From Bacteroidota bacterium (GTDB taxonomy: Bacteria > Bacteroidota > Ignavibacteria > UBA10030 > SZUA-254), in the NCBI GenBank assembly GCA_035518715.1, contig DATIXJ010000027.1:85657-149656 (forward strand): 64,000 nucleotides of DNA. Reading direction: 5' to 3'. Below the pieces are notes generated by a model. The model was not told where the DNA came from. It made no database searches and saw only the letters and a list, made by a program, of their open reading frames with translations. This document shows positions 25,174-40,328 of this stretch, piece after piece. Within the stretch, counting starts at the first letter, position 1, and the number at the start of each line of letters is the position of its first letter. The translations under genes were made by a program, and so were the position numbers.

Positions 25174-26547
25174 ATGAAGTCAACACATGATACTCATTGG
25201 AAGCTTTGGATCATCTTACTCGTTGCTTTCCTCAATGGCTTATTGATGAATCGGGGTTCAGCCTGTCAGTGTTTTTCTGGCCCTCCATGCGAGGCCTACA
25301 AATACTCAGGTGTGATATTCATTGGTGAACTGCTGACTCAACAAAACTCTGGTTTCGGCGGGAGGATTGGAATTCTCTATTCTTTCAAGGTCACAAAATT
25401 GTACAAAGGGAAACGATCAGGTGAAATGAAGATCATGTCAGGGTTTGGCGGAGGGGATTGTGGCTATCCTTTTGAGAAAGGAATTCCTTATTTGATATAT
25501 GCTGATTCTATCCAGGGTGGTGTGCTATATACCGACATCTGTACTCGAACCCGTCAAGTAAGAGAAGCCGCTCTCGACCTATCGTACCTCGACAATTTGC
25601 CGAAATCAGCTGAGCAAACTCACGCCTGGGGTAGTATAATGCAGTTTGATAGTCTCACTGACTATTACATAAAATTCAAACCTTCACCCGGTGTCCAAAT
25701 CAGTACAGTTGCCAATGGTCAGCGTCTCAAAACCTTTTCCGATAGCCTCGGCAATTTCGAATTTGTCAATCTTCCCCCCGACAGTTACAAATTCAGTATC
25801 ACCGTACCCCACAATTTTATGCTGGAATACGGCGATGCTTATACTGAAGTTCGATTGGCACCATCGGGTTGTGCAATGATTCCCCTTACGCTTGTTCCCG
25901 ATGGCCGCATTAGTGGTCGGGTATTAGATAACGATGGCAAATCCGTGCCGCTGATCGACGTCGATCTGATGGCAGTAGATTCTGGCTATTCAAATAATTC
26001 GTACTTGCACACCATTGGTACCCGTGGATACACAAATCGGGATGGGAGATATACGATTCGGGGAGTTCCTCCAGGCAAATATTATGTTGGGGTGAACTTG
26101 ATACATGAGCCCAGGGGAAGACAGCCCTTCCCTCCAACATTCTATCCTGGAGTGACAGACAGATCGCAAGCACGAAAGATTGAAATGAAACTTGGCGATG
26201 CAAGAGATTCCACTGACATTCTCATGCAACAACAATATGCGGTAAAAAAAATCGAAGGAATCCTCAAGTACTCCGATGGGAGCGCTGTCCGAGGTGGCTA
26301 TGTTACATTTGACGAAACAAGAACAAAGGTTCTGGCAGCAAAACAATATGCTGAGAGCGCCGTCGATTCCACTGGCCATTTCTCACTCCCCGCATTGAGA
26401 AACCAGAAAGGCTGGATCCACGCAACAATCAATCCTGATCCGGCATTAAAAAATTTCGTTGTAACGAATCCGGAACCAATCGAGATTACAGCGAGCGAAG
26501 GTACTCGGGTGTTTATTATCAAATTTGCCCTGAAACCAAATAGATAA
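25174..26547 (+). CDS. Secreted protein with an N-terminal TIMP/NTR-like domain followed by CarboxypepD_reg-like beta-sandwich domains
   Basis: The signal peptide ends ...NRGSA, and the predicted mature end is CQC. TIMP-like blocks are YSFKVTKLYKG and DCGYPFEKGIPYLIYADSIQGGVLYTDIC. Later blocks are GRISGRVLDNDGKSVP and RDGRYTIRGVPPGKYYV. I prefer the ATG start at 25174; the track ORF starts at 25105. Confidence 0.7.
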   Translation: MKSTHDTHWKLWIILLVAFLNGLLMNRGSACQCFSGPPCEAYKYSGVIFIGELLTQQNSGFGGRIGILYSFKVTKLYKGKRSGEMKIMSGFGGGDCGYPFEKGIPYLIYADSIQGGVLYTDICTRTRQVREAALDLSYLDNLPKSAEQTHAWGSIMQFDSLTDYYIKFKPSPGVQISTVANGQRLKTFSDSLGNFEFVNLPPDSYKFSITVPHNFMLEYGDAYTEVRLAPSGCAMIPLTLVPDGRISGRVLDNDGKSVPLIDVDLMAVDSGYSNNSYLHTIGTRGYTNRDGRYTIRGVPPGKYYVGVNLIHEPRGRQPFPPTFYPGVTDRSQARKIEMKLGDARDSTDILMQQQYAVKKIEGILKYSDGSAVRGGYVTFDETRTKVLAAKQYAESAVDSTGHFSLPALRNQKGWIHATINPDPALKNFVVTNPEPIEITASEGTRVFIIKFALKPNR

Positions 26548-26549
26548 TC

Positions 26550-26611
26550 GATCAACATCGCAAAGCAGCTGCGCACGTTATGCGCCATGAACGGCGGCAG
26601 CTGTGTTCTGC
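26550..26611 (+). other. attC-like imperfect palindrome (weak candidate)
   Basis: GATCAAC (26550-26556) ... GTTCTGC (26605-26611). The inner arms CAGCTGC/GCAGCTG pair. The centre is GCGCA-cgtta-TGCGC and contains ACGTTATGCG, which recurs at 29385-29394. The flanking 7-mers are non-canonical. Confidence 0.25.
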
Positions 26612-26644
26612 ATTGGCCGTTTTTCATCCTGAGGATTCGACCAG

Positions 26645-27253
26645 ATGTCAACTGACAATAGTAAAAACGAGGTGGAACATTTCAACCGGTGGTCCCGCAC
26701 ATATGACAAGTCATGGATACAACGGTTCGCACTCCCTGTCCACCAAGACATGCTCGATGTTGCTGGTAATCTAGTCGCGGCTCCGCAATCGATTATCGAT
26801 ATAGGATGCGGAACCGGACAGCTTCTAATCAAAGCTTCAGCACGTTGGCCTTCGGCGTACCTTGTCGGCGTGGATCCTGCGATAGGCATGGTTGAGGTTG
26901 CACGCAGCCAAACTCGAGGTGCCACAATCTGTATCGCGAGTGCCGACTCGCTGCCGGTTGCTGACTCCTCAGCCGACATCGTCTTCAGTAGTCTCTCGTT
27001 CCATCACTGGGCTGATCAAACGAAAGGTCTTCGTGAAATAGCTCGCGTGCTGCGTCCGGCCGGTTGCCTCTGTATTGCAGACATTACAATGCCTGACTGG
27101 ATTGCTAAAATAATCCGGCGCGTCAAGGTCAAAGCACCTGTGGAGATGGCTCGTCTTCTCACCGATGCTGGTTTGATAGTCAAATTGCAGAGGCGGAGTT
27201 CTACCAGATTTGTTCTGCTGACCGTCGGAGTTAAGAACTCGGGCAGGACGTGA
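26645..27253 (+). CDS. Class I SAM-dependent methyltransferase (Methyltransf_11-like)
   Basis: Motifs: IIDIGCGTGQL, ADIVFSSLSFHHW, LRPAGCLCIAD. GAGGA lies upstream of the ATG. Confidence 0.85.
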   Translation: MSTDNSKNEVEHFNRWSRTYDKSWIQRFALPVHQDMLDVAGNLVAAPQSIIDIGCGTGQLLIKASARWPSAYLVGVDPAIGMVEVARSQTRGATICIASADSLPVADSSADIVFSSLSFHHWADQTKGLREIARVLRPAGCLCIADITMPDWIAKIIRRVKVKAPVEMARLLTDAGLIVKLQRRSSTRFVLLTVGVKNSGRT

Positions 27254-27314
27254 CCAATCAACACACTACGTTGCGGTGTAAGTGTTGATGCTGCCGTGCA
27301 CGAGCGTATAACAG

Positions 27315-27439
27315 GCCTAACAACGGCGCTCCCTCATTTTATATGGCGATGGCAACCCAAAACGAAAGCCTAAAGGATATCGCTCCATGCCGCACTCATT
27401 TAAGAGAAGAGCGCGGAGTGCGGCACGGCGTCGTTGGGC
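27315..27439 (+). other. attC-like site (best candidate), 125 bp
   Basis: The 5' end GCCTAAC (27315-27321) fits RYYYAAC. The 3' end GTTGGGC (27433-27439) fits GTTRRRY. The two 7-mers pair (6 Watson-Crick pairs and one G-U). The inner arms pair imperfectly with bulges (ACGGCG/CGGCGT, CTCC/GGAG, CTC/GAG). The site lies 62 nt after the upstream stop and ends 11 nt before the next ORF. Confidence 0.45.
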
Positions 27440-27449
27440 GAAACGGTAG

Positions 27450-28076
27450 GTGGTGAACAACCCAATGCTGATCACACTCGAGATCCTGGCGGTGGTCATC
27501 GCACCCCTCATATTTCTATACCTCAAAGGAACCTGGCATTTACGTGCTTCCATCCCGTGTCTCGTCAGCATATCTATCCTGTGGTATCTGACCTACTCGC
27601 CGATACATGAGTTGAGCCATGCTGCCGCGACATATCTGGTAGGCGGCCAGGTCACCTACATGAAGCTCATTCCCCGGTTCTGGCTCGGCGAGTATGGACG
27701 CGCATGGATCACGCCGGCCGGAATTACGGAGGGCTGGCAGCAACTCATCATGACAGCTTCTCCGTACATCATGGATGTGGCGTGTCTTACGGCAGTCATA
27801 TTCGTTCTTCAACGAGGTTTCTCGAAGAAGGCCTTTGTCGTTGGTCTTGTCTTCATGCTTCTCTGTTTGAGGCCTGCATTTGATTTCATCTGCGAGACAA
27901 TCGCGTTTCTCTCCGGCGACAGAGGAGACTTCTTCCACATAGAGATTTTGACCGGAAGCTTTATGATCCGGCTGCTCTTGCTCCTATCGCTCGGGTTATC
28001 CCTGTTTGCTATCGTGAACATTTTGAGGCGCTTTGTCGGGTTTCCTGATGCTCCATTACGTACGGCGAGCACATGA
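27450..28076 (+). CDS. Membrane protein with an HExxH motif (DUF3267-like putative zincin)
   Basis: SPIHELSHAAATYLVGG lies between TM helices, and there are about 5 hydrophobic segments. The start is either GTG 27450 or ATG 27465. Confidence 0.6.
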   Translation: MVNNPMLITLEILAVVIAPLIFLYLKGTWHLRASIPCLVSISILWYLTYSPIHELSHAAATYLVGGQVTYMKLIPRFWLGEYGRAWITPAGITEGWQQLIMTASPYIMDVACLTAVIFVLQRGFSKKAFVVGLVFMLLCLRPAFDFICETIAFLSGDRGDFFHIEILTGSFMIRLLLLLSLGLSLFAIVNILRRFVGFPDAPLRTAST

Positions 28077-28146
28077 ACAAGCAGATGCTGCACTCTGAGG
28101 CGAACGGTCGACTTGAAACTGTGTGCAACAAATTCACTCTGATGAA

Positions 28147-29217
28147 ATGAAAACACCAACGATTCTCCTGACCCTGACAATTCTCACGGCTCCCGGATGC
28201 AAAAATCCGGACGGGAACAAGGCCGCGCCTGGCGACAATGCGATTGTTCGTTCATCAGGTGAGTCAAGCGACATCGCTTTGCAAACAAGCAAACCCATTC
28301 GTTGTATACTGCAGGACAAAAGAGGAAACTACTGGTTCGGCACTGACGGCGATGGAGTGTGTCGTTACGATGGAAAATCCCTTACTTGTCTTACGGAGAA
28401 AGACGGTTTGTGTAATAATCAGGTGCGGACAATTCAAGAAGATAATCTGGGAAATCTCTGGTTCGGCACCGGTGACGGTATTTGCCGCTATGATGGAAAC
28501 ACCTTCACGAAGTTTATGGAGAACGAAAGCCCGGGTAAGGTCTGGAAGGATGAACCCGGCGAACTCTGGTTCGGCTCCCGGGACGGGGCTTGCCGCTACG
28601 ATGGCAGATCTCTCACCTGCTTTTCGCTCCCTGAGTCCGACAAGAAGTTTCCTCCTGCCAATTCCTCAACTCCCTATTCGGTCTATAGTGTATTGGAGGA
28701 CAAAAGCGGAAATCTCTGGCTGGGCACAGAGCAGAGAGGAGTGTGCCGTTACAACGGGAACCGGTTTACGTACTTCACGGAGAAGGGTTTGAGGACAGCC
28801 GCAGTTCGCTGCATCTTCCAGGACAAACATGGAAACCTCTGGTTCGGCAATAATGGCGGCGGAGTCTACCGCTATGATGGAACAACTGTATCCAATTTTA
28901 CCGAAGAACGAGGTTTGAGCAATCCGGACTTTGTAAAATCTCTCATCAGCAAACCGGGAACTCTTGCCCGTGTGTGGACAATCGCCGAAGACAAAGACGG
29001 AAATCTCTGGTTTGGTACCATCGATGCGGGCGCCTGGCGGTTTGATGGGAAGTCCCTGACGAATTTCACAACAAAGGACGGACTTGGGAGCGACGCCGTC
29101 TGGACAATCTATCGGGACAGGGCCGGAACCCTCTGGTTCGGTACGGACGGACGGGGTATCTACACGTTCGACGGGGGATCATTTCATCGTTTTGCAGGGA
29201 AAGGAAATGAGCGGTAA
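28147..29217 (+). CDS. Lipoprotein with two-component-regulator-propeller (Reg_prop) repeats
   Basis: MKTPTILLTLTILTAPGC is lipobox-like. There are at least 7 repeats of the type D..GN(L/Y)WFGT..G(V/I)CRYDG..(F/L)T.F. Confidence 0.8.
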   Translation: MKTPTILLTLTILTAPGCKNPDGNKAAPGDNAIVRSSGESSDIALQTSKPIRCILQDKRGNYWFGTDGDGVCRYDGKSLTCLTEKDGLCNNQVRTIQEDNLGNLWFGTGDGICRYDGNTFTKFMENESPGKVWKDEPGELWFGSRDGACRYDGRSLTCFSLPESDKKFPPANSSTPYSVYSVLEDKSGNLWLGTEQRGVCRYNGNRFTYFTEKGLRTAAVRCIFQDKHGNLWFGNNGGGVYRYDGTTVSNFTEERGLSNPDFVKSLISKPGTLARVWTIAEDKDGNLWFGTIDAGAWRFDGKSLTNFTTKDGLGSDAVWTIYRDRAGTLWFGTDGRGIYTFDGGSFHRFAGKGNER

Positions 29218-29248
29218 TGAACAGTAACGGACACTGAGCTGCACGAAC

Positions 29249-29393
29249 GCATAACACATCACTCACTCATCTGGTGAGGTGTGGTGGGGTCAAATGTTTG
29301 GCTCGATGGTTGGTGTTCGTTCATCGGCTCGCACACCCACGCCAGAAAAGCAAAAGCATAGTGCTCGCTGGGCGTGGTTGCGAAACGTTATGC
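29249..29393 (+). other. attC-like site candidate, 145 bp
   Basis: ACGCATAAC (29247-29255) is perfectly complementary to GTTATGCGT (29387-29395). The interior holds several imperfect hairpins (CTCAC/GTGAG and CCACGCC/GGCGTGG). The site ends 32 nt before the next start codon. Confidence 0.35.
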
Positions 29394-29425
29394 GTCAGGC
29401 CCCGGCGCTGAAATGAAAGCAGAAG

Positions 29426-30342
29426 ATGTTAACAGACGACAAAGTTAGAACAGCCGCCTTTGATTGGCTTGCGAAGCAAGCTGCTCTTCACGGTGAAGTT
29501 CTGCCAAGGAATCTCCTCCAGCACGGGTTCATCATCGAAGGAAAGCGGATTCCTTTGCTTTCTCCCCAAGGCATTTTCAGACCCGCGGTACTCCATGATG
29601 CCCCTCTTTCGATCGTAACTTCTCCCGACAGCCCGTACAATGATAGCTTCAGTCTGGATGGCCTGCTGCAGTACAAGTATCGCGGTACCAATCCTCGTCA
29701 TCGAGACAACGTGGGATTGCGGGAAGCGATGAGGAATCACATTCCACTTATTTATTTCCATGGCATTGCCCCCGAAAATATATTGCGGCCTGGCCGGTTT
29801 ATATCTTCAGTGATGATCCGACGAATCTCACATTCACAGTGATCGTGGACGATGTCGCAACCGTTACGATGCGAAGAGGAGAACAGCCCATTCAGGAGGT
29901 TCCCGATGAAGAAGCGCTCTTCAGCCGCAGAGCATACGTGACGAAACAAGTCCGACAACGACTTCACCAGCAAGCTTTTCGTGCCCGGGTTCTCGCCGCT
30001 TACCGAGAGCAATGCGCGTGTTGCAGATTACGCCACGAACAGCTGCTGGACGCTGCACACATCATTCCCGATTCAGAACCTGAAGGTGAACCTGTTGTCA
30101 GTAATGGCATCGCACTCTGCAAGCTACATCATGCAGCGTTTGATGAATTATTTATCGGCATTACACCCGACCACATTATACAAGTGAGACGCGACATCCT
30201 TGAGGAATTCGACGGCCCGATGTTATTGCATGGCCTTCAGGGATTGAATGGAAACAAAATTGTCCTGCCGCGATCACTCAGGCACCAGCCGAATCGCGAA
30301 TTTCTAGAGAGACGATTTATTCTTTTTAGGAATGCTGGATGA
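29426..30342 (+). pseudogene. HNH endonuclease (HNH_2 / putative restriction-endonuclease-like) disrupted by a 1-nt frameshift
   Basis: Track ORFs 29426-29842 and 29839-30342 are two halves of one protein. The frame changes within CCCCCGAAAA (29769-29778). Read through, the sequence is ...FHGIAPE(K)YIAAWPVYIFSDDPTNLTFTVIVDD.... The HNH core is CACCRL...LDAAHIIP...NGIALCKLHHAAFD. Confidence 0.75.
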
Positions 30343-30481
30343 TCCGCATTTTCGCACGGCATGGTGAAAACGTCTTACGCGCAAAGCACCGATAGTCCGC
30401 GGCCTCAAACAAGGGTGGGCGAGACCGCGTGCTTACGCGAACGCTAGACGCTATAACATCAGGACTTAATGAGAGACTCAT

Positions 30482-31036
30482 ATGCCTCCACACTACGTCA
30501 AAACAATTCGTGAAGAGATCCTGTATGAATATGCGAAGCTGATCTCTCGGTCCGCATACGGAACTCTCCAGCGTGGTTTCATCACCGAACGGTTTCAGAA
30601 GCTCCGCGATGGTGAAATCACCATATCTGACACAATCCGAGAGTGGGAGCGCGAGCAACAACTCCCGAAGGAATGCGTCTTCTGTGGTACGACCGACGAC
30701 CTTACAACCGACCACCTCATCCCCATAAACCGGGGAGGCGACGATTCCGCGGACAATCTCGTGCTCTCGTGCCGGACCTGCAATTCTTCACGGGGAGACA
30801 AAGGTGTCTTTGAGTGGCTTGGACTGGAAAAGAAAGACCGTCTGCATCGACTGGTCGCAGGCAAATACCTGAAACAGCTCCTGACCGTTCACGAGAGAGG
30901 CCACACCCTGGAAATAAGCAAGAGTCAAGTCGGACAACTCTGTGCATCGTGCCCGTTACCAAAGGTGTGTGAACAGTGGGGAAAGAATGAGGAGCTCACT
31001 TGCTTCTGTCTGGAAAGTGTATTGCCATACAAATGA
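30482..31036 (+). CDS. HNH endonuclease (HNH_5-like)
   Basis: CVFCGTTDDLTTDHLIPINRGGDDSADNLVLSCRTCNSSRGDK. Confidence 0.8.
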   Translation: MPPHYVKTIREEILYEYAKLISRSAYGTLQRGFITERFQKLRDGEITISDTIREWEREQQLPKECVFCGTTDDLTTDHLIPINRGGDDSADNLVLSCRTCNSSRGDKGVFEWLGLEKKDRLHRLVAGKYLKQLLTVHERGHTLEISKSQVGQLCASCPLPKVCEQWGKNEELTCFCLESVLPYK

Positions 31037-31155
31037 TTCACTTGCCACTGCTGCGACCTTCAGCGGAAAATACGATGCTTGGTCACGTACGTCTTTCCAA
31101 ACAAAATGGTGCTGTGTTGTCGGGCGAGACTTTGTACTCTATTGGGCTTCAACCA

Positions 31156-31272
31156 AGTATCCGGAGCCGTGCAATCGCCAGGGGAGTGCGGCTGGAAATC
31201 AACCGACGCTTTGCGATTGCGCAAGTTCTTTGATTACTTTCTTCCAAAGAAAGTAACAAAAGAGATTTCCAG
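31156..31272. repeat. Structured intergenic repeat, copy 1 (117 bp)
   Basis: It shares GTGCAATCGC, TGGAAATCAA, GCTTTGCGATT, GCGATTGC(G/A)CAAGTTCTTTG(A/G)TTACTTTCTTCCAAAGAAAGTAACAA and GATTTCCAG with 34804-35026. Inverted repeats are 31171-31178/31213-31220, 31192-31200/31264-31272, and a 10-bp hairpin at 31234-31256. Confidence 0.8.
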
Positions 31273-31296
31273 TTCTGAATTTTAAGAAAGTCTTTC

Positions 31297-31806
31297 ATGG
31301 ACATCCTCGGCAAAAGTCCCATCCCAATTCCAATGTTTATTGTCGGAAAGCTGGCGTTTCTCGCCTGCGCACTCTTCATTTTCATCAGATCCATTGGCGT
31401 TGACTCAATGCTCTTCGAATCCGCCTTTACCCGACAAATGGGCCTCATATTCTATGTCGGCGGATTAATTATTGTCATCGCCGCTCTTCTCCAACTCGGT
31501 CAATCTGCCGCAGTAGGAATTCCCGCAGGAAATACTGAACTTAAGACACACGGTCTCTACAGTCTTTCCAGGAATCCGGTCTACACCGGCGCGTTCATCA
31601 TGTGCATCGGATCATGCCTGTACTCTCTGCATCTCATCAATCTCTTCCTTCTTGTTCTTACCGTCGCCATTCATCACTGGATCATCATCCGGGAAGAGGT
31701 ATTCCTTGAGCAGCGGTTTGGGCGGAAATGGAACGATTACAATCAACGGGTTCCGAGATACATTGGCAGAATCAAACGAGGTGAGATTCGCGGCAAGAGC
31801 GAATAG
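31297..31806 (+). CDS. Isoprenylcysteine carboxyl / phospholipid methyltransferase family membrane protein
   Basis: LKTHGLYSLSRNPVYTGAFIMCIG and EEVFLEQRFGRKWNDY, with 4 TM segments. Confidence 0.8.
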   Translation: MDILGKSPIPIPMFIVGKLAFLACALFIFIRSIGVDSMLFESAFTRQMGLIFYVGGLIIVIAALLQLGQSAAVGIPAGNTELKTHGLYSLSRNPVYTGAFIMCIGSCLYSLHLINLFLLVLTVAIHHWIIIREEVFLEQRFGRKWNDYNQRVPRYIGRIKRGEIRGKSE

Positions 31807-31856
31807 CACGCAGCAACACGACGATGGATAATATTTTTTCAATCTCGAGCGTTCCT

Positions 31857-32576
31857 ATGATCCGAAGCTTTGTGCTTCTCATTTTCGCGTTGGCTCAATT
31901 CAACTTCTCTGCCGATTCACAGAGTAGTGCGCAAGCGCCACCCAATGGATTTCGCAGTGCCGGTGAAATCAGACTTACATTCAGTTCAAATGGGGTGGAT
32001 GGCAAACTCATCTTGCTTATCGACAACCGGCTGCCGGAGGAAATACCTGCCTGGGACTATCTCGATTCCGTCGGAGATCCTTCTGCATTGCAAAATGCTG
32101 CCTTGATCATCCTCGGTCAAGATGGCGATACCATCGTCACTGAACTTCTGGAGAGGCCATCTGCTTGGTTTCAGATAACAGACTCAATACCGGATTCTCC
32201 CACCTGGATGGCAATAACAGTGGATTATTCCTCTGGTATGGGTTCATACAACGGTCCCATTACTTCCTTTCTAGGCGTTAAGAATGCGAAAATAGAGTGG
32301 CTGGAAGTTTCCAATGTTGCCACCAATCAGCGAGAAAGGATCTTCCTCATGCGATCGCTCAAAACGCAGTGGAGGTTAGTACAGAACGATCCTCCCTACC
32401 TGCTTCAAGCGGCTTGTCGGCCGGATTTTGACAAGGGTCTAGATTCGTTTAAGTTGATTTTTACACGCGATTCGTTGAAAGGGTCAGGGTGGTTTAAATC
32501 TGAGCGAGTTGAAAGCGGTTTTTTGGAATTTGAAGATGAGAGTGATTTTCCACCCGAATCAAAATTTCCAGAATAG
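31857..32576 (+). CDS. Hypothetical secreted protein
   Basis: Signal-like MIRSFVLLIFALAQFNFSA. No recognised motif. The track ORF starts at 31824. Confidence 0.5.
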   Translation: MIRSFVLLIFALAQFNFSADSQSSAQAPPNGFRSAGEIRLTFSSNGVDGKLILLIDNRLPEEIPAWDYLDSVGDPSALQNAALIILGQDGDTIVTELLERPSAWFQITDSIPDSPTWMAITVDYSSGMGSYNGPITSFLGVKNAKIEWLEVSNVATNQRERIFLMRSLKTQWRLVQNDPPYLLQAACRPDFDKGLDSFKLIFTRDSLKGSGWFKSERVESGFLEFEDESDFPPESKFPE

Positions 32577-32623
32577 TTCGCCTGAGCGATGTGGTGCGAC
32601 TGGGGACCATGGCGTGAAGGAGA

Positions 32624-33067
32624 ATGACAATGAATGAAGTAATGTCAGCTTGCGGCATTATCTGCTCGAATTGTGCCGCATACGTTGCCGCCTCCAAAGG
32701 GCTTGATGACCGGAAGGAGGCCGCTGAGGCATGGAGCAGAATCTACGGATTTCAAACGGCTCCGGAGAAAATGTCATGCGGCGGGTGCCTCGGTTCCGAC
32801 GACAAGATCTTTCACACGAGTATCAAATGCTCTGCCCGTCGCTGCTGCCTGACCAAAGGCCTCAAGAGCTGTGCGGAGTGTCCGGAAGAATCGTGTGAAC
32901 TCCTGGCGAGAGCGCAGTCGATTTGGGATCCTGTTCCTGAAATTTGTGCGAAGTTGTCTCCGTCCGACTTTGAAAAATACGCCCAACCCTATTGCGGTGT
33001 CCGGGAGCGATTTGAGGCGGCACGGCGGGCGTTCAGATCGCGTAACAAACAAAGTGATTGCCACTAG
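32624..33067 (+). CDS. DUF3795-like Cys-rich protein
   Basis: Motifs: CGIICSNCAAY, MSCGGCLG, CSARRCCLTKGLKSCAECPEESC. Confidence 0.7.
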   Translation: MTMNEVMSACGIICSNCAAYVAASKGLDDRKEAAEAWSRIYGFQTAPEKMSCGGCLGSDDKIFHTSIKCSARRCCLTKGLKSCAECPEESCELLARAQSIWDPVPEICAKLSPSDFEKYAQPYCGVRERFEAARRAFRSRNKQSDCH

Positions 33068-33185
33068 GGCAAGTGAGAAACCAATGCCAGAGATGAAATC
33101 TACCTTCCTTGATTTCGTTCGACAAGTCGCAAATAGCGGCATCGATGAACTGTCTCGCTTGCACGAAGTGGCATTTGCGTTGCCC
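33067..33185 (+). other. attC-like imperfect palindrome (weak candidate), 119 bp
   Basis: GGGCAAG (33067-33073) ... GTTGCCC (33179-33185), with GGGCAA/TTGCCC pairing. The inner pair is AATGCCA/TGGCATT. The central hairpins are GAAATC/GATTTC and CGAC/GTCG. Caveat: a 50-codon ORF (33084-33236) also covers this stretch. Confidence 0.25.
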
Positions 33186-33252
33186 CCGGGTCGAGATTTT
33201 TCTGGATCAATTGCGGATATCCTGAAAAGATACTAGATTCGATGGATGAGTT

Positions 33253-33858
33253 ATGGAACTCCTGAAGACATTCCTTTTCCTGATCGCCGTTATTGATCCG
33301 CTGGGAACGATTCCAATCTTCCTGGTAGCGACGAAGCCGTTCGACAGGCCGATGAAACGCAAAATTGCCATCCGGGCAACGATGTTCGCTGCTTTGATAC
33401 TCGTCTTCTTCATCGTTGCTGGACAACTCATCATGGAGGCGATGGAAATCTCCCTCTCTGCATTTCAGATATCCGGCGGAGCGATCTTGTTCCTCTTTTC
33501 GTTGACCATGGTTTTCGGGCACGGGGAAGCGCATGGCGAAACCCAGGCCGTTCCAAATCATGAACATGTCACGATTTTTCCCATTGCGATGCCTTCCATA
33601 GCTTCTCCCGGAGCCATCATGGCGGTTGTCCTTCTCACCGACAACTATACGTTCTCCATCGGGCAGCAATTTATTACAACACTCATTCTCTTCCTCGTTC
33701 TCATTCTGACTTGCGGTGTTCTACTGGCCGCGAGAAAAATTCAGGAAAAGGTCGGTGACACGGGAATTACCGTCATCAGCAAGATCATGGGTCTGATTCT
33801 CGCTTCGTTTGCCGTGCAGAACGTCCTGACAGGAATCAAGGCATACTTCAGGCTCTGA
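33253..33858 (+). CDS. MarC-family (UPF0056) integral membrane protein
   Basis: FLFLIAVIDPLGTIPIFL and IFPIAMPSIASPGAIMAVV. Confidence 0.9.
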   Translation: MELLKTFLFLIAVIDPLGTIPIFLVATKPFDRPMKRKIAIRATMFAALILVFFIVAGQLIMEAMEISLSAFQISGGAILFLFSLTMVFGHGEAHGETQAVPNHEHVTIFPIAMPSIASPGAIMAVVLLTDNYTFSIGQQFITTLILFLVLILTCGVLLAARKIQEKVGDTGITVISKIMGLILASFAVQNVLTGIKAYFRL

Positions 33859-33920
33859 TGCGGGTTTATCGGGGCGGGTACGTTGCCGTAAATTCTCAAC
33901 TCCTCACCGGAAAAAGTACA

Positions 33921-34346
33921 ATGAAACAATCAGCAAAAACCTCAGGCTATTCCGGGACACCCTTGGCAAAAAAGCTCGGCATCAAGAGCAATTTCAGGGT
34001 TCGACTCGTGAATCAGCCGGATCACTACTTCGATCTCTTTACCGATCTGCCGGAAGATCTCAAGGTTGTGACCGACAGGAAATCAAAAAAGAATCTGATT
34101 CACTATTTTACGACGAGTGCTTCACGGCTGGAATCGGACATCAAACAATTGCGGAATGAGATCGAAGAAGACGGGTCAATATGGATATCCTGGCCGAAGC
34201 TGAGCGCGAACCTCAAGACTGACCTCAATGAAAATATCGTACGCGACATCGCACTCAGAAATAAACTGGTGGACGTGAAAGTCTGCGCGGTCGATGAAAC
34301 CTGGTCGGCGCTGAAGCTCGTTATCCGTCTTAAAGATAGAAAATAA
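33921..34346 (+). CDS. DUF3052-like protein
   Basis: MKQSAKTSGYSGTPLAKKLGIKSNFRVRLVNQPDHY. I prefer the ATG start at 33921; the track ORF starts at 33858. Confidence 0.7.
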   Translation: MKQSAKTSGYSGTPLAKKLGIKSNFRVRLVNQPDHYFDLFTDLPEDLKVVTDRKSKKNLIHYFTTSASRLESDIKQLRNEIEEDGSIWISWPKLSANLKTDLNENIVRDIALRNKLVDVKVCAVDETWSALKLVIRLKDRK

Positions 34347-34397
34347 TATCACCCTCACATCAGAGGGGCATCGTTCATTTGAATAAGGAGTTCATTT

Positions 34398-34766
34398 ATG
34401 TCCTTCGGAAAGACAACGCCCATTCTGCGCATATTCGATGAAGCCAGAGCTAAGGAATTTTATATCGGTTTCCTCGGATTCGAGATCGATTGGGAACACC
34501 GCTTTGAACCCGGTACGCCGATCTACATGCAGATCTCGAAGGACGGATGCGTTCTCCATTTGTCGGAGCATCACGGCGACGGATGTCCGGGCGCAGTAAT
34601 GAGGATTCAGACCAATGAACTCGACAAGTTTCACGCCGAACTCACTGCCAAAAATTACAAATATTACCGCCCCGGCATACAGAAAATGGAATGGGGTACC
34701 CGGGACATGACGGTCCAGGACCCCTTCGGCAACAAGCTGACATTTACCGATGCAATCAGCACCTAA
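34398..34766 (+). CDS. Glyoxalase / bleomycin-resistance (VOC) superfamily protein
   Basis: Motifs: ILRIFDEARAKEFYIGFLGFEIDWEHRF, LHLSEHHGDG, MTVQDPFGNKLTF. AAGGAG lies upstream. Confidence 0.85.
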   Translation: MSFGKTTPILRIFDEARAKEFYIGFLGFEIDWEHRFEPGTPIYMQISKDGCVLHLSEHHGDGCPGAVMRIQTNELDKFHAELTAKNYKYYRPGIQKMEWGTRDMTVQDPFGNKLTFTDAIST

Positions 34767-34803
34767 ACATACACCTTTTACGCTCTTGAGATGGGGAGGA
34801 CTG

Positions 34804-35026
34804 AGTATTCCAGAATATGCGGGGCTGTGCAATCGCTAGCGTTGTGCGTTTGGAAATCAATCCCCGCTTTGCGATTCCGACGGAATAGCATACAGGTCGT
34901 GTTCGCTCATTGCTTGAGCGTCGGAATCGCGCTGAACCTAAGCCGGCCGCATCGAAGCCGTGTGTTGCGATTGCACAAGTTCTTTGGTTACTTTCTTCCA
35001 AAGAAAGTAACAACAAAGATTTCCAG
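34804..35026. repeat. Structured intergenic repeat, copy 2 (223 bp, with an extra internal module of about 96 bp)
   Basis: It has the same conserved blocks as copy 1. The outer inverted repeat is TGCAATCGC (34828-34836) / GCGATTGCA (34967-34975). The extra 12-bp perfect inverted repeat is GCGATTCCGACG (34871-34882) / CGTCGGAATCGC (34919-34930). The identical hairpin lies at 34988-35010. Confidence 0.8.
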
Positions 35027-35066
35027 GCGATTTGATTTTAACATCCAGACTTAGGAAAAGCTCACC

Positions 35067-35630
35067 ATGAAAACATATATCGCCCTCTTCAGGGCCATCA
35101 ATGTCGGCGGAAAGAACGCCCTGCCAATGAAAGAGCTTGCCGTTCTTCTGCAGAAACTTGGCTGCGTGGATGTCCGAACGTATATTCAGAGCGGCAACGT
35201 CGTTCTGACATCCGCGGAGAAGAGTCCGGAACGCCTTTCCGTCCAGATCAGCAAGAACGTGAAGGCAAACTTCGGATTTGATCCGACGCTGAAGCTATTG
35301 GAAGCGCGGGAATTAGAGACAGCAATCTCGAACAACCCATTCCCGGAAGCAGCAAAGACGCCCGAGTATTTGCACGCCGGATTTCTCCTCCAGAAGCCGG
35401 TCAAACCCGATCTGCAGAAACTCGAGTCGCTGAAGCAGAACGGAGAGCGATTTCAGCTGAAGGACAAAATATTTTATTTGCACGCACCGAAGGGAGTCGG
35501 CAAGTCGAAACTGGCCGCAAGCAGTGAGAAGCTGCTTGGCGTACCGATGACTGATCGCAACTGGCGGACGGTATGTAAGATCAGGGATATGGCGAGGGAG
35601 ATCAACGAACGCCGTGCGAGCAGTCGATGA
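35067..35630 (+). CDS. DUF1697 protein
   Basis: MKTYIALFRAINVGGKNALPMKELAVLLQKLGCVDVRTYIQSGNVVL. Confidence 0.85.
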   Translation: MKTYIALFRAINVGGKNALPMKELAVLLQKLGCVDVRTYIQSGNVVLTSAEKSPERLSVQISKNVKANFGFDPTLKLLEARELETAISNNPFPEAAKTPEYLHAGFLLQKPVKPDLQKLESLKQNGERFQLKDKIFYLHAPKGVGKSKLAASSEKLLGVPMTDRNWRTVCKIRDMAREINERRASSR

Positions 35631-36114
35631 ATGATATCGATATTGAAGATCCGAGGATGAAGACATATTCGTGCCTAACTGTTTAAACATACCAGCGGAC
35701 AGTAATGAATAGGGTCAGACTTGAACGGAACCGATGGACTGGGTGTTCATTTCTTTGTTCCGCCAAAGAAATGAAGGAAAGTCCCGCGGATCGGGATCCC
35801 GCTCTTTCAAAAGTATTTTTGATGCGGGAAAAGGCGGCCGAAATCGAAACGCGCGATTCCTTCCCCTTCCGCACAATGCAGCTGCAAATCCGCTTTAAGA
35901 AGCAGAAACAAAGTGGATTTGTACCGCTTCGGATGGAATCTGTCCACCGCACAGCGCTCTCGATTTCGGTTCCTAACGCACTCATCCAAGAGGTAGGCAT
36001 GAACGGGATTATGATGTATCGCATCGATTCAATTGTAACGCGTACTATGAGGCGTATTCCTGTCATCGTGGCCGAGTCTCAATCAATCATCAGTGAAATG
36101 CAAGGAGATCGAGA

Positions 36115-36540
36115 GTGGCAGAAAACAAAACCAAGCCAACAAAAAGCAGCGTCACATCATTCCTGAACAAGATCAAGGATAAGCAGCGGCGTGATGATTG
36201 TTACGCCATTGTCGGGATGATGCAGGAAGTTTCCCGCCTGGAGCCCGTCATGTGGGGAAGCGCGATTATCGGATTCGGAACATACCATTACGTCTACGAT
36301 AGCGGCCGGGAAGGAGATACGGTAATCATCGGCTTCTCCCCGAGGAAACAGAATATTGCGATCTACCTTATGGGCGGACTGAAGCCAATCGAGGGAGAGC
36401 TCGCGAAGCTCGGCAAGCACAAAAGAGGAGGAGGGTGCCTGTATATCGATTCTCTCGCCGACGTGAACCATAAGGTCCTCACGAAGATCTTTGCAAAGGC
36501 ATTCAAAGGTGGACAGAAAAAGATCTCACAGACGGCGTGA
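36115..36540 (+). CDS. DUF1801 (YdhG-like) protein
   Basis: VTSFLNKIKDKQRRDDCYAIVGMMQEVSRLEPVMWGSAIIGFGTYHY and KQNIAIYL. Confidence 0.85.
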   Translation: MAENKTKPTKSSVTSFLNKIKDKQRRDDCYAIVGMMQEVSRLEPVMWGSAIIGFGTYHYVYDSGREGDTVIIGFSPRKQNIAIYLMGGLKPIEGELAKLGKHKRGGGCLYIDSLADVNHKVLTKIFAKAFKGGQKKISQTA

Positions 36541-36546
36541 CCGGGA

Positions 36547-37017
36547 ATGAATCCCGCATTGCTCGAGTCGCTGCGAACAACATTTGTCCCGCTCGGGTTT
36601 CGGCCGGTCGAACCCGATCGAGCCGCAGCGCCGGAGCTGCAGAGGATTCTCAAGAGACAGACCTGGAACACCAACAGAGCAATCGGGGTATTCCAGATCG
36701 AGGCGGTTCCGCCAGATTTTCACAAAGTTGTGAAAAGGTGGGGATGGAGGATTGCAAAGAAGGTCGGCTTTTTCCCTTTCTTCTATAGCCTAGGAATACA
36801 GGTCATCGTCTCTTGCAAAGGTCCCGTTGACGCGAAGATGAACCTATCACATTGCGTCAACAAAGTTGATAACCAGCTGGCAATCGTTCAAAGTATTTTT
36901 CTGATTGATGAATCAAGCAGCAGGTTCATGCAGGCAAGAACATGGGGGCAATTGATTACCGGAAAATATCAGGATGACATTGTTCGTTGTCTCCGCCAAT
37001 TTTATAAGGAGAAATGA
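36547..37017 (+). CDS. Hypothetical protein (156 aa)
   Basis: The ORF fills the gap on the same strand. I recognised no motif. Confidence 0.5.
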   Translation: MNPALLESLRTTFVPLGFRPVEPDRAAAPELQRILKRQTWNTNRAIGVFQIEAVPPDFHKVVKRWGWRIAKKVGFFPFFYSLGIQVIVSCKGPVDAKMNLSHCVNKVDNQLAIVQSIFLIDESSSRFMQARTWGQLITGKYQDDIVRCLRQFYKEK

Positions 37018-37018
37018 C

Positions 37019-37270
37019 ATGTACATGCAGGTGATCGCTATACTCGTTTTCGGACTGACTGGTTATTTCCTCGGTTCGATCAAGAAGGACAAAATTTCAA
37101 ACCGGTTCAACATTATTCTTCTCATTCTGCTTCTCTTTGCTGCAAACTCTCACGGGCTGGGATTCTCCGGTGTCGGTGAATTTGTCATGAAGGATAACGA
37201 CATACTTCAGGGGTTGATCTTCGGGATACTGCTGCGGAGAATTTCGTTCAAGCCCTCACTGGCGATTTGA
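37019..37270 (+). CDS. Small membrane protein (83 aa)
   Basis: MYMQVIAILVFGLTGYFLG and IILLILLLFAA. AAGGAG (37006-37011) lies upstream of the ATG at 37019. Confidence 0.45.
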   Translation: MYMQVIAILVFGLTGYFLGSIKKDKISNRFNIILLILLLFAANSHGLGFSGVGEFVMKDNDILQGLIFGILLRRISFKPSLAI

Positions 37271-37490
37271 ATGGGTAATTTTCTCATTCATTGATGAGAG
37301 GCGGCGCTATTGATTGATTTTATGATTCAGGCAATTTTCCATTGCTCGGATGTGGCGTTAATAAATCATTTCGAGATTGAGTCATTACAATGTACTTACG
37401 GACGATGAATTAATCGTTAATTCTTCGGGCCCATACCCAATGACATAATGAGTCAATGACAAAATCTCCCCGCCATAGTAGTGCCATGCC

Positions 37491-39212
37491 GTGAGCTGGA
37501 TATTCTCGATATCGAAGGCTGATACTCGAGCCGGGGCTCATGTGCCCTGTCATGCCCCCCTACATGTATGTTCAGGAAAAAATTTTTATCTCGCAGTGGG
37601 AGGAAATCCCGATACTGCCTTCTGGCATAATGACGGCTCCCGCGGCTGGATTGTGGCTGGGGTCGGTTTCATCCGGAAGAATTCTGATTTCTCTCTCCTC
37701 ACCAAAGCAGATTGGCATCACCTTCTCGAGCAAGAGAAGTTCGATCCGGCTCTTCTCGATGGTCACTTTGTCGTCCTTCGCTGGAATGCAGGTCGACTCG
37801 AGTGCTTCACCGACCAATTAGGGATCAGGACTCTTTACTTCGGGAAATGTGCTCATGGAATTTGCATATCGACGCGATTGGATTGGGTCGCGCAATCGCT
37901 GAAGAGCCCGGGAATCGACTATCCCTCGCTCGGCGCAAAATGGCTCCTGCTGAATCAGTTTTCATTTGAATCCGGCATCTCCGGAATCGAGCGGCTGGGA
38001 CCGTGCGGGCACGCAGCTTTCAATGCCGGGGAAGTGGTTCGGTCAGTGCCTGGAAAACGATGGATCCCTTCCTTTGAGCCAACGACACCGGATATAGCAA
38101 TACGCACCCTGCAAGAATTCGTGCGATGTGCCCTGACCCAGCGCGACCAGCCATCGCTCGGATTATCCGGAGGTCTCGATTCTCGATTTCTTCTTGCCCT
38201 GTTCGCAAACCTTTCAAAGGATGGATTCTCGACGCACACTTTCGGCGATTGCTGTGATCCGGATCTTCAGGTAGCACACCGGATCTCCATGGCGCTTGGA
38301 ATTCCCCATCGACAGTTCAATGATCCGCTTCCGGATGTTCAAACGTGCATTTCCGGTCTCAAGTCATTCGCCGCTCAGGCGGCCCTGAGTGAGCCGGCAT
38401 CATCATATCTCAAACTCCGTTATTATTCTTCGCTTCGTGCCAACGGCAAGATAATGGTGGATGGCGGATTCGGTGAGATTGCCCGAAGGAAGTTCTTTAA
38501 TCGACTCCTGAGATTCAGGAAACGTGCGCTTTTGAGAAGAGACTCGGCGCGCCTTGCAAGCTATGTCAGTGCCCACCGTGCAGATATCTTCTCGCCTGAG
38601 ATCAATACGGCACTTCAACGCGGGGCTGTTCACGACGTGGAAAAAACACTCGACAAGTTGCCGGATACCGGGAAGATTGGATTCGAGAACCTCGCAGACC
38701 TGCTTGCGATATCCGCCCGACTCCCGAATTACGTCTGCCACGAGCAGGCGCGGATCGATGGTGAGGTTCTCAACTTTATGCCATTCTTACAACCCTCATA
38801 TTTGCGTGAAGTCTTTGGCCTTCCGCTCGAAGTGAGATCGCGTGGAGGGCTCCATCACCGGTTCATCCGAGAGTTCAATTCCGATCTCACGCATTTTCCA
38901 TTGTCGAAAGGCGGTGTCACATATCCCTACGGTTCCTCGACTGCCAGGGCGATGTTCACATCAATTCTCAAATCAGGTCTTGGGAAAAAGTACACCGACC
39001 CCAAACCCGATTTACTCCTTACACACCTCCGCGAATTCGTTCTCGATACGGTCCATTCAAAAGATGTGGTGGAGAATCCGGCGTACGACTACCAGAAGGT
39101 GTCAGATGCCGTGGCGCAGTATTATTCAGGGGATTCCAGCCGACGGCTTGCAGTGGATTGGTGGCTTACATTCGAGCTGTGGAGGCAATCGTTATCGCCG
39201 CCAGCCGGTTGA
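37491..39212 (+). CDS. Asparagine synthase (AsnB)-related protein. The PP-loop is present and the N-terminal amidotransferase nucleophile is apparently absent.
   Basis: GHFVVLRWNAGRLECFTDQLGIRTLYF is GATase-like. LGLSGGLDSRFLLAL is an SGGxDS PP-loop. The N-terminus reads (V/M)SWIF instead of MCG. Confidence 0.75.
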   Translation: MSWIFSISKADTRAGAHVPCHAPLHVCSGKNFYLAVGGNPDTAFWHNDGSRGWIVAGVGFIRKNSDFSLLTKADWHHLLEQEKFDPALLDGHFVVLRWNAGRLECFTDQLGIRTLYFGKCAHGICISTRLDWVAQSLKSPGIDYPSLGAKWLLLNQFSFESGISGIERLGPCGHAAFNAGEVVRSVPGKRWIPSFEPTTPDIAIRTLQEFVRCALTQRDQPSLGLSGGLDSRFLLALFANLSKDGFSTHTFGDCCDPDLQVAHRISMALGIPHRQFNDPLPDVQTCISGLKSFAAQAALSEPASSYLKLRYYSSLRANGKIMVDGGFGEIARRKFFNRLLRFRKRALLRRDSARLASYVSAHRADIFSPEINTALQRGAVHDVEKTLDKLPDTGKIGFENLADLLAISARLPNYVCHEQARIDGEVLNFMPFLQPSYLREVFGLPLEVRSRGGLHHRFIREFNSDLTHFPLSKGGVTYPYGSSTARAMFTSILKSGLGKKYTDPKPDLLLTHLREFVLDTVHSKDVVENPAYDYQKVSDAVAQYYSGDSSRRLAVDWWLTFELWRQSLSPPAG

Positions 39213-39265
39213 GCCCCTCGAAAGAGCATAGTCCAATATCCCGTCTATCCTCCTCCTGAAAACTC

Positions 39266-39294
39266 TTGCACGCTTCACCGCGATTTCTTACAAT
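39266..39294 (+). promoter_or_regulatory. Sigma70-like promoter candidate
   Basis: TTGCAC (39266-39271), a 17-nt spacer, then TACAAT (39289-39294). AAGGAG at 39317-39322 precedes the GTG at 39328. Confidence 0.35.
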
Positions 39295-39327
39295 ATCCTC
39301 TTGTCAATTGACTATAAGGAGATTCCT

Positions 39328-40314
39328 GTGAGATCTTTCATCAGCCGTGTGCGATCAACCCGAATTTTCGTAGGCTGCATGACTGCAATCATTCTTTGCT
39401 CATGTGCGCAGCAGGGCCCGAAGCTTCTCCCCGTTGGAGAAGGGCGCATCGCCGTCCACGGCGGGAATATCTGGTACAAAATTTCTGGGAGCATCCGCGG
39501 CATACCGGTTGTCCTGCTCCACGGCGGTCCCGGCTTTTCTAGCTTCTATATGAAGCCGTTCGATGATCTCTCGGACAGCCGCCAGGTGATACGTTACGAT
39601 CAGCTCGGAGGCGGGAAATCAGACAAGATTACCGACACCACGATGTTCACTGTTGATCACTTTGTGCGCGAACTCGATTCGCTGCGCTCATATTTTGGAA
39701 TAGAAAAATGGCATATCCTGGGTCACTCGTGGGGAACAATGCTCGCCGTTGAATACTATAAGCTGCATCCCGAACATGTGGCAAGTCTCACGCTCTGCAG
39801 CGCATCGCTCGACATCCCGGCATGGGAGAAGAACGCCAGGGAGCTCATGAAGACGTTGTCGGATTCATCACAGCGCGCGATCCGCGCGGCAGAGGCAGCA
39901 AAGAAGTTTGATGATTCATCATATCAAAATGCCATTGGCGAATTCTATGGGAAATATGTTTTTCGTCACTCTGTTCAGGCAGATCTCGACAGTACCCTGG
40001 CGACCATGGCAGAAGGGCTCTACAATTACATGCAGGGGCCGAGTGAGTTCACCATTACCGGGACGCTCAGGAATTATGACGCAACACCATATCTGCACGA
40101 GATCAAAGTCCCGGTACTCTATACGGTAGGTGAATTTGACGAGGCCGGTCCGCAGCTCATCGAGCGCTTTGCGTCACTGACTCCGGGCGCGAAAATAGTG
40201 GTGCTGAAAGGTGCGGCACACATCACGCCGTGGGATGCCCATGAGGAGAATGTGAGGGTTGTGAGAGATTTCCTCCACGGGGTGGACTCAGCTTTAGCAG
40301 CGGTAAAGCAATAG
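39328..40314 (+). CDS. Alpha/beta hydrolase, proline iminopeptidase family, probable lipoprotein
   Basis: Motifs: VVLLHGGPG, GHSWGTML (nucleophile elbow), VLKGAAHIT. The signal with Cys is GCMTAIILCSC. I prefer the GTG start at 39328; the track ORF starts at TTG 39301. Confidence 0.85.
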   Translation: MRSFISRVRSTRIFVGCMTAIILCSCAQQGPKLLPVGEGRIAVHGGNIWYKISGSIRGIPVVLLHGGPGFSSFYMKPFDDLSDSRQVIRYDQLGGGKSDKITDTTMFTVDHFVRELDSLRSYFGIEKWHILGHSWGTMLAVEYYKLHPEHVASLTLCSASLDIPAWEKNARELMKTLSDSSQRAIRAAEAAKKFDDSSYQNAIGEFYGKYVFRHSVQADLDSTLATMAEGLYNYMQGPSEFTITGTLRNYDATPYLHEIKVPVLYTVGEFDEAGPQLIERFASLTPGAKIVVLKGAAHITPWDAHEENVRVVRDFLHGVDSALAAVKQ

Positions 40315-40328
40315 ATCCGGATCGTACC

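Follow-up and report, generated by a model that had tools for sequence, protein, structure and literature searches.

A family of structured intergenic elements is described here from a 64,000-nucleotide stretch of a Bacteroidota genome of the Ignavibacteria (contig DATIXJ010000027.1, assembly GCA_035518715.1); the whole of this stretch is called the window, and coordinates refer to it unless a locus is named. The element is about 200 nucleotides (nt) at full length and occurs among small, co-directional, unrelated genes (two HNH endonuclease, PEMT-like, DUF3795, MarC, glyoxalase-family, DUF1697 and DUF1801 genes). In its full form a long-range helix, P1, closes a domain made up of unpaired, conserved junctions and the hairpin P2; behind this domain come a motif resembling the boxA of rRNA operons (rrn) and a terminal hairpin. 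An earlier reading of the sequence, the original prediction, had placed two intergenic copies at 31156-31272 and 34804-35026, each ending shortly before a start codon. Both copies are real, with every listed motif in place, and the ATGs at 31297 and 35067 lie 24 nt past the end of copy 1 and 40 nt past the end of copy 2; the count of two falls short, as the minus strand carries a third, diverged copy at 35746-35976. Scores are those of a covariance model, R1, built from 16 sequences.

31156-31272, + strand: copy 1, internally deleted (R1, 96.6 bits, E 1.8e-23)
31297-34766, + strand: co-directional small genes behind copy 1 (PEMT-like methyltransferase, unknown, DUF3795, MarC, unknown, glyoxalase-family)
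34804-35026, + strand: copy 2, the full-length element (R1 match 34820-35020, 185.1 bits, E 3.5e-46, model positions 1-201; the outer limits are those of similarity to copy 1)
35067-35630, + strand: DUF1697 gene, with copy 2 upstream (+) and copy 3 downstream (-)
35746-35976, - strand: copy 3, diverged and inverted (R1 match 35815-35976, 33.8 bits; E 2.5e-7 in the window, or 7.8e-8 without filters)

With copy 3 downstream on the minus strand, the DUF1697 gene stands between two convergent copies. A repeat search joins copies 1 and 2 through a 62-nt block of 94% identity (31211-31272 and 34965-35026) and a 64-nt block of 80% identity (31158-31221 and 34816-34879). The perfect 10-base-pair (bp) hairpin of 23 nt, TTACTTTCTT-CCA-AAGAAAGTAA, is found at 31234-31256 and again at 34988-35010, with 0.00 chance occurrences expected in the window, and RNA folding is more stable than that of dinucleotide shuffles for both copies (z -3.2 for copy 1, z -4.0 for copy 2). 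The order of parts in the full form is P1 5' strand, junction J1/2, P2, second junction, P1 3' strand, linker, boxA-like motif, terminal hairpin and tail, which in copy 2 are placed as follows.

34827-34836, + strand: P1 5' strand, GUGCAAUCGC, pairing with 34967-34976
34837-34870, + strand: junction J1/2, unpaired and conserved (..GUUGUGCGUUUGGAAAUCAAUCCCCGCUUU), containing the segment B of the original prediction; model-alignment consensus GGCuGUGuGcGuGGaaaaAUCAAuCaaaGCUUU
34871-34930, + strand: P2 hairpin, with stems 34871-34882 and 34919-34930 and a variable apical part
34967-34976, + strand: P1 3' strand, GCGAUUGCAC, with the conserved GCCGUGUGUU directly before it
34979-34987, + strand: boxA-like motif, GUUCUUUGG, single-stranded and invariant in the family
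34987-35011, + strand: terminal hairpin, G-UUACUUUCUU, loop CCA, AAGAAAGUAA-C, with a pyrimidine-rich 5' arm
35012-35026, + strand: tail, AACAAAGAUUUCCAG, holding the segment B' of the original prediction; its CAAAGA can pair with the boxA-like motif

In the full form J1/2 reads GGCuGUGuGcGuGG..AUCAA..GCUUU, the second junction ends in GCCGUGCGUU, the linker between P1 and the boxA-like motif is AA, and the terminal hairpin is followed by CAACAAAG. In the family the linker is 2-4 nt long, and sequence conservation stops 6-8 nt past the terminal hairpin.

The fold is supported by strong covariation of P1 and P2 among relatives, a check that the original prediction had proposed. Pairs were counted in 17 full-length matches (115-198 bits), in an alignment that was fitted to the model and so leans towards structure: P1 is paired in 91-92% of cells, with both-side changes at 5 of its 10 pairs, and P2 in 93%, with both-side changes at 10 of 12. 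A standard pair is formed in 95% of cells, compared with 82% in shuffles, and 72 cells are changed on both sides where 24.8 are expected, values that none of 500 shuffles reached. Compensatory changes occur at 15 pairs, every one in P1 or P2 (for instance GCAAUCGC/GCGAUUGC, GCGAAACCGA/UCGGUUUCGC and GCGGAAUCGG/CCGAUUCCGC in P1, and GCGAUUCCGACG/CGUCGGAAUCGC, GUAAUUUCGA/UCGAAAUUAC and UAGGUUUCGGUGC/GCACCGAAACCUA in P2), and pairing drops to 33-49% in a control with the 3' partners slid. G-U occurs in 7 cases in P1 and P2 and A-C in 1, an excess indicating that the folded strand is the + strand, co-directional with the genes. The terminal hairpin is invariable in the 17-copy set because the search pattern fixed it; it is nonetheless a real helix, as had been predicted, since other copies in the same loci carry the compensatory variants CCUACUUUCUU/AAGAAAGUAGG, GUUACUUUUUU/AAAAAAGUAA, GUACUUUUCUU/AAGAAAAGUAC and GUUCCUUUUGU/ACAAAAGGAAC, and its closing pair alternates between G-C and C-G. 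Beyond P1, P2 and this hairpin, RNAalifold returned one isolated consensus pair only. A 10-bp pairing between J1/2 and the second junction (J2/1), seen in the L049 and L007 types of locus, was considered and set aside as not general.

Copy 1, from which the original prediction drew its secondary structure, lacks 96 model positions (52-147, comprising P2 and J2/1) between two GCGATT repeats that correspond to the P2 5' strand and the P1 3' strand. Its remaining parts are these.

31169-31178 with 31213-31222, + strand: P1 of copy 1
31225-31233, + strand: boxA-like motif of copy 1, GUUCUUUGA
31234-31256, + strand: terminal hairpin of copy 1

Since the missing segment is invariably present in relatives, copy 1 is a deletion derivative, and the converse, that copy 2 carries a nested insert, was rejected on the same ground. 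This bears directly on the proposed pairing of A (GCAATCGC, 31171-31178) with A' (GCGATTGC, 31213-31220) and of B (CTGGAAATC, 31192-31200) with B' (GATTTCCAG, 31264-31272). The first is a genuine helix, P1, with compensatory changes, except that the A' of copy 1 is the P2 5' strand fused to the P1 3' strand by the deletion, and the order A-B-A'-hairpin-B' is therefore not the native layout. The second fails: B (GGAAAUCAA) belongs to J1/2, a junction that is conserved and unpaired, and B' is found behind the hairpin only in copies 1 and 2. Neither the nearest relative, L040 (80% identical), nor any of the 15 other full-length copies has it. Because B' moreover bears an uncompensated T-to-G change in the syntenic locus L073, the interleaved pairing is rejected, and with it the pseudoknot or pair of exclusive folds that had been built on it. 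Copy 1, which retains P1, the boxA-like motif and the hairpin, may still act.

Copy 3 retains P1 (CCGAAAUCGA/UCGAUUUCGG), the junction motif of J1/2 and P2, has lost the upper hairpin, and about 65 nt beyond has a short hairpin, UUCAUUUCUUUG-GCGGAA-CAAAGAAAUGAA, at 35746-35775. The stretch 35640-36110 between the DUF1697 and DUF1801 genes, which holds copy 3, is probably non-coding, and the open reading frames (ORFs) that overlap the copy, 35705-36166 (+) and 35683-36066 (-), have no Pfam match. Copy number in this genome was judged from the window together with Logan contigs of the source sample; in the metagenome run that assembles the organism best, the core is carried by the window's own copies only, and the element is thus low-copy and local here.

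Relatives were found well outside the host lineage. A pattern scan of species-representative genomes, in which the hairpin alone was required and its loop left free, gave 30 loci, 20 of which have TTCTTTG(G/C) or a near variant directly before the hairpin; metagenomes of soil, wetland and gut contributed 26 more loci. By record title the carriers include Chitinophagales, Olivibacter, Parapedobacter and several other Bacteroidota, as well as a Chlorobiaceae-labelled metagenome-assembled genome (MAG), Desulfobacteraceae, Lentisphaeria, Oscillospiraceae, Subdoligranulum and Phascolarctobacterium; cultured carriers are Parapedobacter sp. DT-150, Olivibacter ginsenosidimutans JCM 18200 and Subdoligranulum variabile. 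A relaxed scan recovered a further type with a 6-nt loop at 27 places in three S. variabile records. Types named apart from R1 are the Firmicutes, the Sphingobacteriia and the 'AAAAGGCG' type. Relatives (about 45) occur single, tandem or inverted, and copies of 80% identity stand in unrelated gene surroundings. The description 'lineage-specific' does not hold for a family that spans several phyla.

The family is thus widespread across phyla, structured, and without a match in Rfam 15. The gathering scan of the window returned a tRNA only, and E-value scans of both copies and 10 related loci gave chance-level matches only (E > 0.1), which agrees with the earlier statement that the element matches nothing named. 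A literature search with the hairpin sequence gave unrelated short hairpin RNA or primer matches only, and the family was not found in the literature searched. A phage origin was rejected, as the full core has 0 matches in IMG/VR and none in phage records; the half pattern in contigs called viral is mostly one Subdoligranulum-type repeat, plus unrelated matches. Orphan RNA motifs such as raiA and ROOL are comparable in having been found by conservation and covariation only, in being patchy across phyla and in lacking an assigned function, whereas the present element differs from them in fold and sequence, is multi-copy and forms arrays, and carries a recognizable transcription signal.

Several of the related loci hold other repeats beside the element. 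A second, different element ending TTTTTG-GTTCCTTTTGT-CGTGTA-ACAAAAGGAAC is present at L003 (minus strand, ~6460-6830), L014 (2165) and L015 (4111), where it has the same design (helix, U-rich motif, hairpin) in a different sequence, and it alternates tail-to-tail with Firmicutes-type copies in gut Firmicutes arrays with a period of ~360 nt. At L018 (4640-4730, minus) three tandem hairpin units, CCTACTTTCTT-TC-AAGAAAGTA, lie behind one Firmicutes-type copy, and a second complete copy stands head-to-head ~100 nt away with terminator-like hairpins between. In L070 (S. variabile OY725847.1, a record filed as a plasmid and unannotated) the hairpin module sits inside a composite repeat of >700 nt that contains several more hairpins, and 25 nt past the module's own hairpin comes an intrinsic terminator (GGCCCCGCGAAAGCGGGGGCC, then a U-rich run). 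An IS3-family-looking two-ORF transposase element, identified from its translation, is inserted at the 3' end of an array unit in L053 (1-1110), and at L049 (1-1000, minus) a glmS-like (glutamine-fructose-6-phosphate aminotransferase) gene has upstream of it, in divergent orientation, a two-unit array intermingled with further GC-rich hairpin repeats, for example TGTAGGGACATGCCTCCGGCATGTCC.

The bracketed arrangement of the window recurs in L073, whose DUF1697 protein is 91% identical and whose short copy 3 hairpin is 100% identical. The upstream element of L073 has lost the P1 5' strand and has a diverged P2 apex with the stems of P2 kept, while the sequence from the P2 3' strand through the terminal hairpin is nearly unchanged; because this 3' core stays near-identical as the P2 loop and the 5' part decay, it is the constrained part. 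Crude ORF calls place the start of an ORF of the same orientation 30-380 nt behind the element in the window, and likewise in ~11 of 13 full-length copies that stand singly. The downstream genes, read from translations, are unrelated from locus to locus (PEMT-like, DUF1697, redoxin-like, AlaX-like, MiaB-like, TolC-like and others), and an all-against-all BLAST of ORFs near ~50 loci found no conserved neighbor protein. Sigma-70, sigma-54 and Bacteroidota-type promoters were sought before P1, with nothing convincing. In Subdoligranulum an intrinsic terminator lies past the hairpin, which implies transcription in the + orientation of the element, and terminator-like hairpins follow the Subdoligranulum, Phascolarctobacterium and Lentisphaeria copies. 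The two HNH endonuclease genes of the window (29839-31036; HNH_2, 167 aa, and HNH/HNH_5, 184 aa) lie directly before copy 1, and an HNH gene beside the element does not recur in the other loci.

The clue to a function comes from the invariant unpaired stretch G(U/C)UCUUUG(G/C/A), the core of which is the same as that of the rRNA-operon boxA of Bacteroidota and Bacillota. The boxA sequences with which it was compared are the following.

Prevotella nigrescens rrn leader boxA: cGTTCTTTGAt
Prevotella nigrescens 16S-23S spacer boxA: cGTTCTTTGAc
Bacillus subtilis spacer boxA: hairpin, GAAACGU, GTTCTTTGAAAAC

The 8-9-nt core, GUUCUUUG(A/G), matches the rrn boxA of Prevotella and B. subtilis exactly, with the 3' part unmatched, and copy 1 has 10 consecutive bases in common with the Prevotella leader boxA. 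Consensus sequences in the literature are GYTCTTTAANA for gamma-proteobacteria (PMC5725501) and AUGAUCUUUGAAA for the B. subtilis leader boxA, which lies directly behind a small hairpin and for which NusB binding has been shown (PMC13753749). The family variants GCUCUUUGG (L033; Subdoligranulum at 24609) differ at exactly the Y position of the consensus, and the Oscillospiraceae copy L014, hairpin-GCAAACG-UUCUUUGC, is close to the Bacillus spacer; no record of a Subdoligranulum rrn boxA was among the matches listed. The motif can pair with a downstream CAAAGAA, forming a lower stem of at least 5 bp in 45% of copies as against 26% of shuffles, and because this pairing is not universal it does not explain the invariance of the motif, which points instead to recognition of the unpaired sequence. 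Furthermore, the motif has the layout of a boxA, unpaired between P1 and the hairpin and with a co-oriented ORF behind it in most single full-length copies. A separate likeness concerns the hairpin 3' arm: the 5' end of Prevotella nigrescens 23S rRNA (L071, 3199) reads GGAAAGUAAC, a 9-nt match (9-mer GAAAGUAAC) that was discarded as chance level for the search space by our own estimate.

Because helix-boxA-helix is the layout of rrn antiterminators and lambda nut sites, it is proposed that the element is a cis-acting, nut-like module predicted to load Nus factors, a tentative assignment made from sequence and given a probability of about 0.35. On this model the element would be transcribed together with the genes behind it, and the boxA would recruit NusB-S10, then NusG, NusA and the remaining Nus complex to the elongating RNA polymerase, making it resistant to termination, whether Rho-dependent or intrinsic, over accessory genes that are foreign or poorly translated, or over non-coding arrays made up of the element. 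The flanking helices would present or mask the boxA, and the P1-P2 domain may serve as a docking site for a further factor. In a closely related version of the model, the helix and TTCTTT would act as a NusG-dependent pause or termination signal; TTCTTT behind a helix is established as a NusG-dependent pause signal in B. subtilis.

The likeness to the rrn antiterminator (boxB hairpin, boxA, boxC) and to lambda nut sites extends beyond the G(U/C)UCUUUG core, identical to that of the P. nigrescens and B. subtilis spacer boxA, to a motif that is unpaired beside a helix, as in rrn leaders (PMC13753749), or followed by a hairpin, as in nut sites, and to a position upstream of and co-oriented with genes. 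Unlike those systems, the element does not precede rRNA or phage genes, has a 150-200-nt P1-P2 domain before the motif and occurs in tandem arrays, and its Nus binding is predicted only. The loop of boxB is what lambda N reads, whereas in the element the hairpin loop is variable and the stem is conserved. Few targets of boxA control outside rRNA operons and lambdoid phages are documented, for example suhB and CRISPR leaders (PMC5725501, PMC13753749). These share with the element a single boxA, which modulates Rho-dependent termination on non-rRNA transcripts, non-coding arrays included (PMC5725501; PMC13753749), and a boxA before non-coding CRISPR arrays is a published precedent (cited in PMC13753749); in those cases the boxA stands by itself and belongs to a single gene family, whereas the element is portable, structured, multi-copy and associated with unrelated genes.

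A number of observations weigh against the assignment as a Nus-loading module. The canonical 3' half of boxA (AANA or GAAAA) is unmatched, the element having GGUUA buried within the hairpin stem; the first G is replaced by A or U in ~30% of copies (AUUCUUUGG, UUUCUUUGG); and Sphingobacteriia copies read AGUCUUUGG. The C. difficile rrn boxA differs (AACUUUGAAAA), so that 'boxA' is not uniform across Bacillota. Nus binding does not account for a hairpin stem so highly conserved in sequence. Two loci carry the label of a Woesearchaeota MAG (one MAG), and to our knowledge archaea lack NusB. Copies L011, L016, L023 and L029 are convergent or antisense to neighbor genes, none of the RNA runs searched for the window region contains it, and the pair counts come from the structure-leaning alignment already mentioned. 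Finally, the family behaves in several respects like a repeat: there are gene-free tandem arrays with a period of 300-420 nt (L038, L049, L053, L003), inverted pairs (L018, L043, L055) and a high copy number in Subdoligranulum, and the 3' core (34957-35024) reaches a summed word depth of up to ~180 in three wetland runs, where the organism has ~8, and breaks contigs. Confidence is low because of the unmatched boxA 3' half, the loss of the first G, the C. difficile difference, the antisense copies and the repeat-like behavior.

A fuller version of the proposal, doubtful but worth stating, is that the family is a new cross-phylum class of structured RNA carrying an rRNA-type boxA, a portable Nus-loading module ('nut site with a body') that would be placed before horizontally acquired genes or non-coding arrays, either by bacteria or by a semi-selfish element, and would shield them from Rho while P1-P2 binds a further factor. 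If so, Nus-factor loading would be used as a movable module for accessory genes, and the family would offer a handle on how foreign or untranslated transcripts are protected from termination in bacteria outside the Proteobacteria. Even if the boxA reading fails, what is left is a well-supported family outside Rfam 15 with a defined fold, strong covariation and cultured carriers, and a 3' core abundant enough in wetland metagenomes to break assemblies.

Among other explanations, the one that survives best, itself improbable, is that of a selfish non-autonomous repeat of the REP/BIME, REPIN or IS200/IS605-PATE kind, in which the hairpin and its 5' flank would be the single-stranded DNA site for an HUH (TnpA/RAYT-type) enzyme encoded elsewhere and the fold would be carried along as the repeat spreads by transposition and tandem duplication. 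The repeat-like traits listed above, namely the 27 places in three S. variabile records, the tandem arrays and inverted pairs, and the wetland repeat node at which contigs break (depth ~180 against 8), all fit such an origin, as do the patchy distribution across phyla (an archaeal-labelled MAG included), the 80%-identical copies in unrelated contexts, the deleted or decayed copies (copy 1, L073) and the gene bracketed by inverted copies. Like REP/BIME, REPIN and PATE repeats, the element is an intergenic hairpin repeat with transcribed-strand bias and conserved bases 5' of the stem, occurs single, tandem and inverted, and breaks assemblies; these conserved 5' bases together with the short tail (CAACAA) may be likened to the right end of IS200/IS605, which we take the layout to resemble. 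However, REPs are 20-40 nt long and species-specific, whereas the element is ~200 nt, with conserved unpaired junctions, and cross-phylum. In contrast to REPIN and PATE repeats, no RAYT, TnpA or TnpB linkage was found, no transposase or other protein recurs near the ~50 loci, and the left end has no matching second hairpin; copy number, high in Subdoligranulum, is low in this genome, whose own sample yielded the window's copies only. The copy is also orthologous and syntenic in the relative with the 91%-identical DUF1697 protein. Copies within a genome are diverged, yet they keep their helices through compensatory changes and keep the unpaired junction motifs, which argues for selection on the fold and not for recent transposition, and the excess of G-U over A-C pairs likewise speaks against a selfish repeat. 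A classical miniature inverted-repeat transposable element, one of the options first entertained, is unlikely, as the copy ends, AGTATYC... and ...GATTTCCAG, are not inverted repeats and the flanks (CAACCA|..|TTCTGA and GGACTG|..|GCGATT) show no target-site duplication.

Less probable still is a stand-alone, trans-acting RNA or ribonucleoprotein component with its own promoter and unrelated to the next gene, either of guide type, with variable downstream sequence as the guide in the manner of TnpB/IscB omega RNAs, or a protein sponge. A multi-helix architecture with conserved junctions exceeds what a simple leader needs, and gene-free arrays, copies antisense or convergent to their neighbors and the terminator-like hairpins after the Subdoligranulum, Phascolarctobacterium and Lentisphaeria copies would all suit an independent transcript. 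Conservation that ends 6-8 nt past the hairpin would resemble a scaffold-guide junction, and omega RNAs (HEARO, IS605-orfB) similarly have a multi-helix scaffold, a conserved terminal hairpin and a short tail before variable sequence. Yet no nuclease gene stands beside any locus, no partner gene is linked to the element, no conserved promoter was seen before P1, no match to the HEARO or IS605-orfB motifs or to other Rfam families was obtained, and single full-length copies are oriented with the genes downstream. A boxA on the element would be compatible with a trans-acting RNA and with a selfish repeat alike.

That the element is a riboswitch or attenuator, with A-B-A'-hairpin-B' as a pseudoknot or two exclusive folds setting the expression of the next gene, is very unlikely. 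P1 does close a junction with conserved unpaired bases, as in an aptamer, ahead of a hairpin; P1 followed by UUCUUUGAUU in copy 1 scored as terminator-like; and GCGAUU/AAUCGC is common to the P1 and P2 stems in many copies, making alternative pairings possible. The alternative P1/P2 pairing is not kept in L049-type copies, however, and relatives lack the B-B' pairing, which an uncompensated change breaks in L073. The downstream genes are incoherent and some arrays have none, and the hairpin that would be the expression platform is better conserved than any other part, the reverse of the pattern in riboswitches.

The weakest candidate, a site-specific recombination site bounding gene cassettes (integron attC-like or dif-like), can hardly be right: it would accommodate the co-directional island of small unrelated genes, the copies flanking gene blocks, with one gene bracketed by inverted copies, and the nearly palindromic core, but the element has no RYYYAAC...GTTRRRY frame, its ~200-nt multi-helix fold is far larger than attC, its palindrome spacer, at 3 nt, leaves too little room for a tyrosine-recombinase core, a Pfam screen of the ORFs in 25105-39212 showed no integrase, and most relatives stand single between ordinary genes. 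Four metagenome runs contained no deletion or inversion joints for the block 31273-34803, and the lone 'goes back' joint was copy 1 mapping onto copy 2. The only R''/R' attC-like site in 24000-43500, none being present at the element, lies at 27315-27439 (GCCTAAC...GTTGGGC, 125 nt, with a strong fold on both strands), and with a single such site the island is not a classical integron cassette array.

Two further sets of repeats in the window fall within coding sequence. The repeats at 28123-29217 coincide with Reg_prop ('two component regulator propeller') Pfam matches on their ORF, and six in-frame repeats with a period of ~165-177 nt occupy 53499-54382 of a 753-aa ORF (53424-55685).

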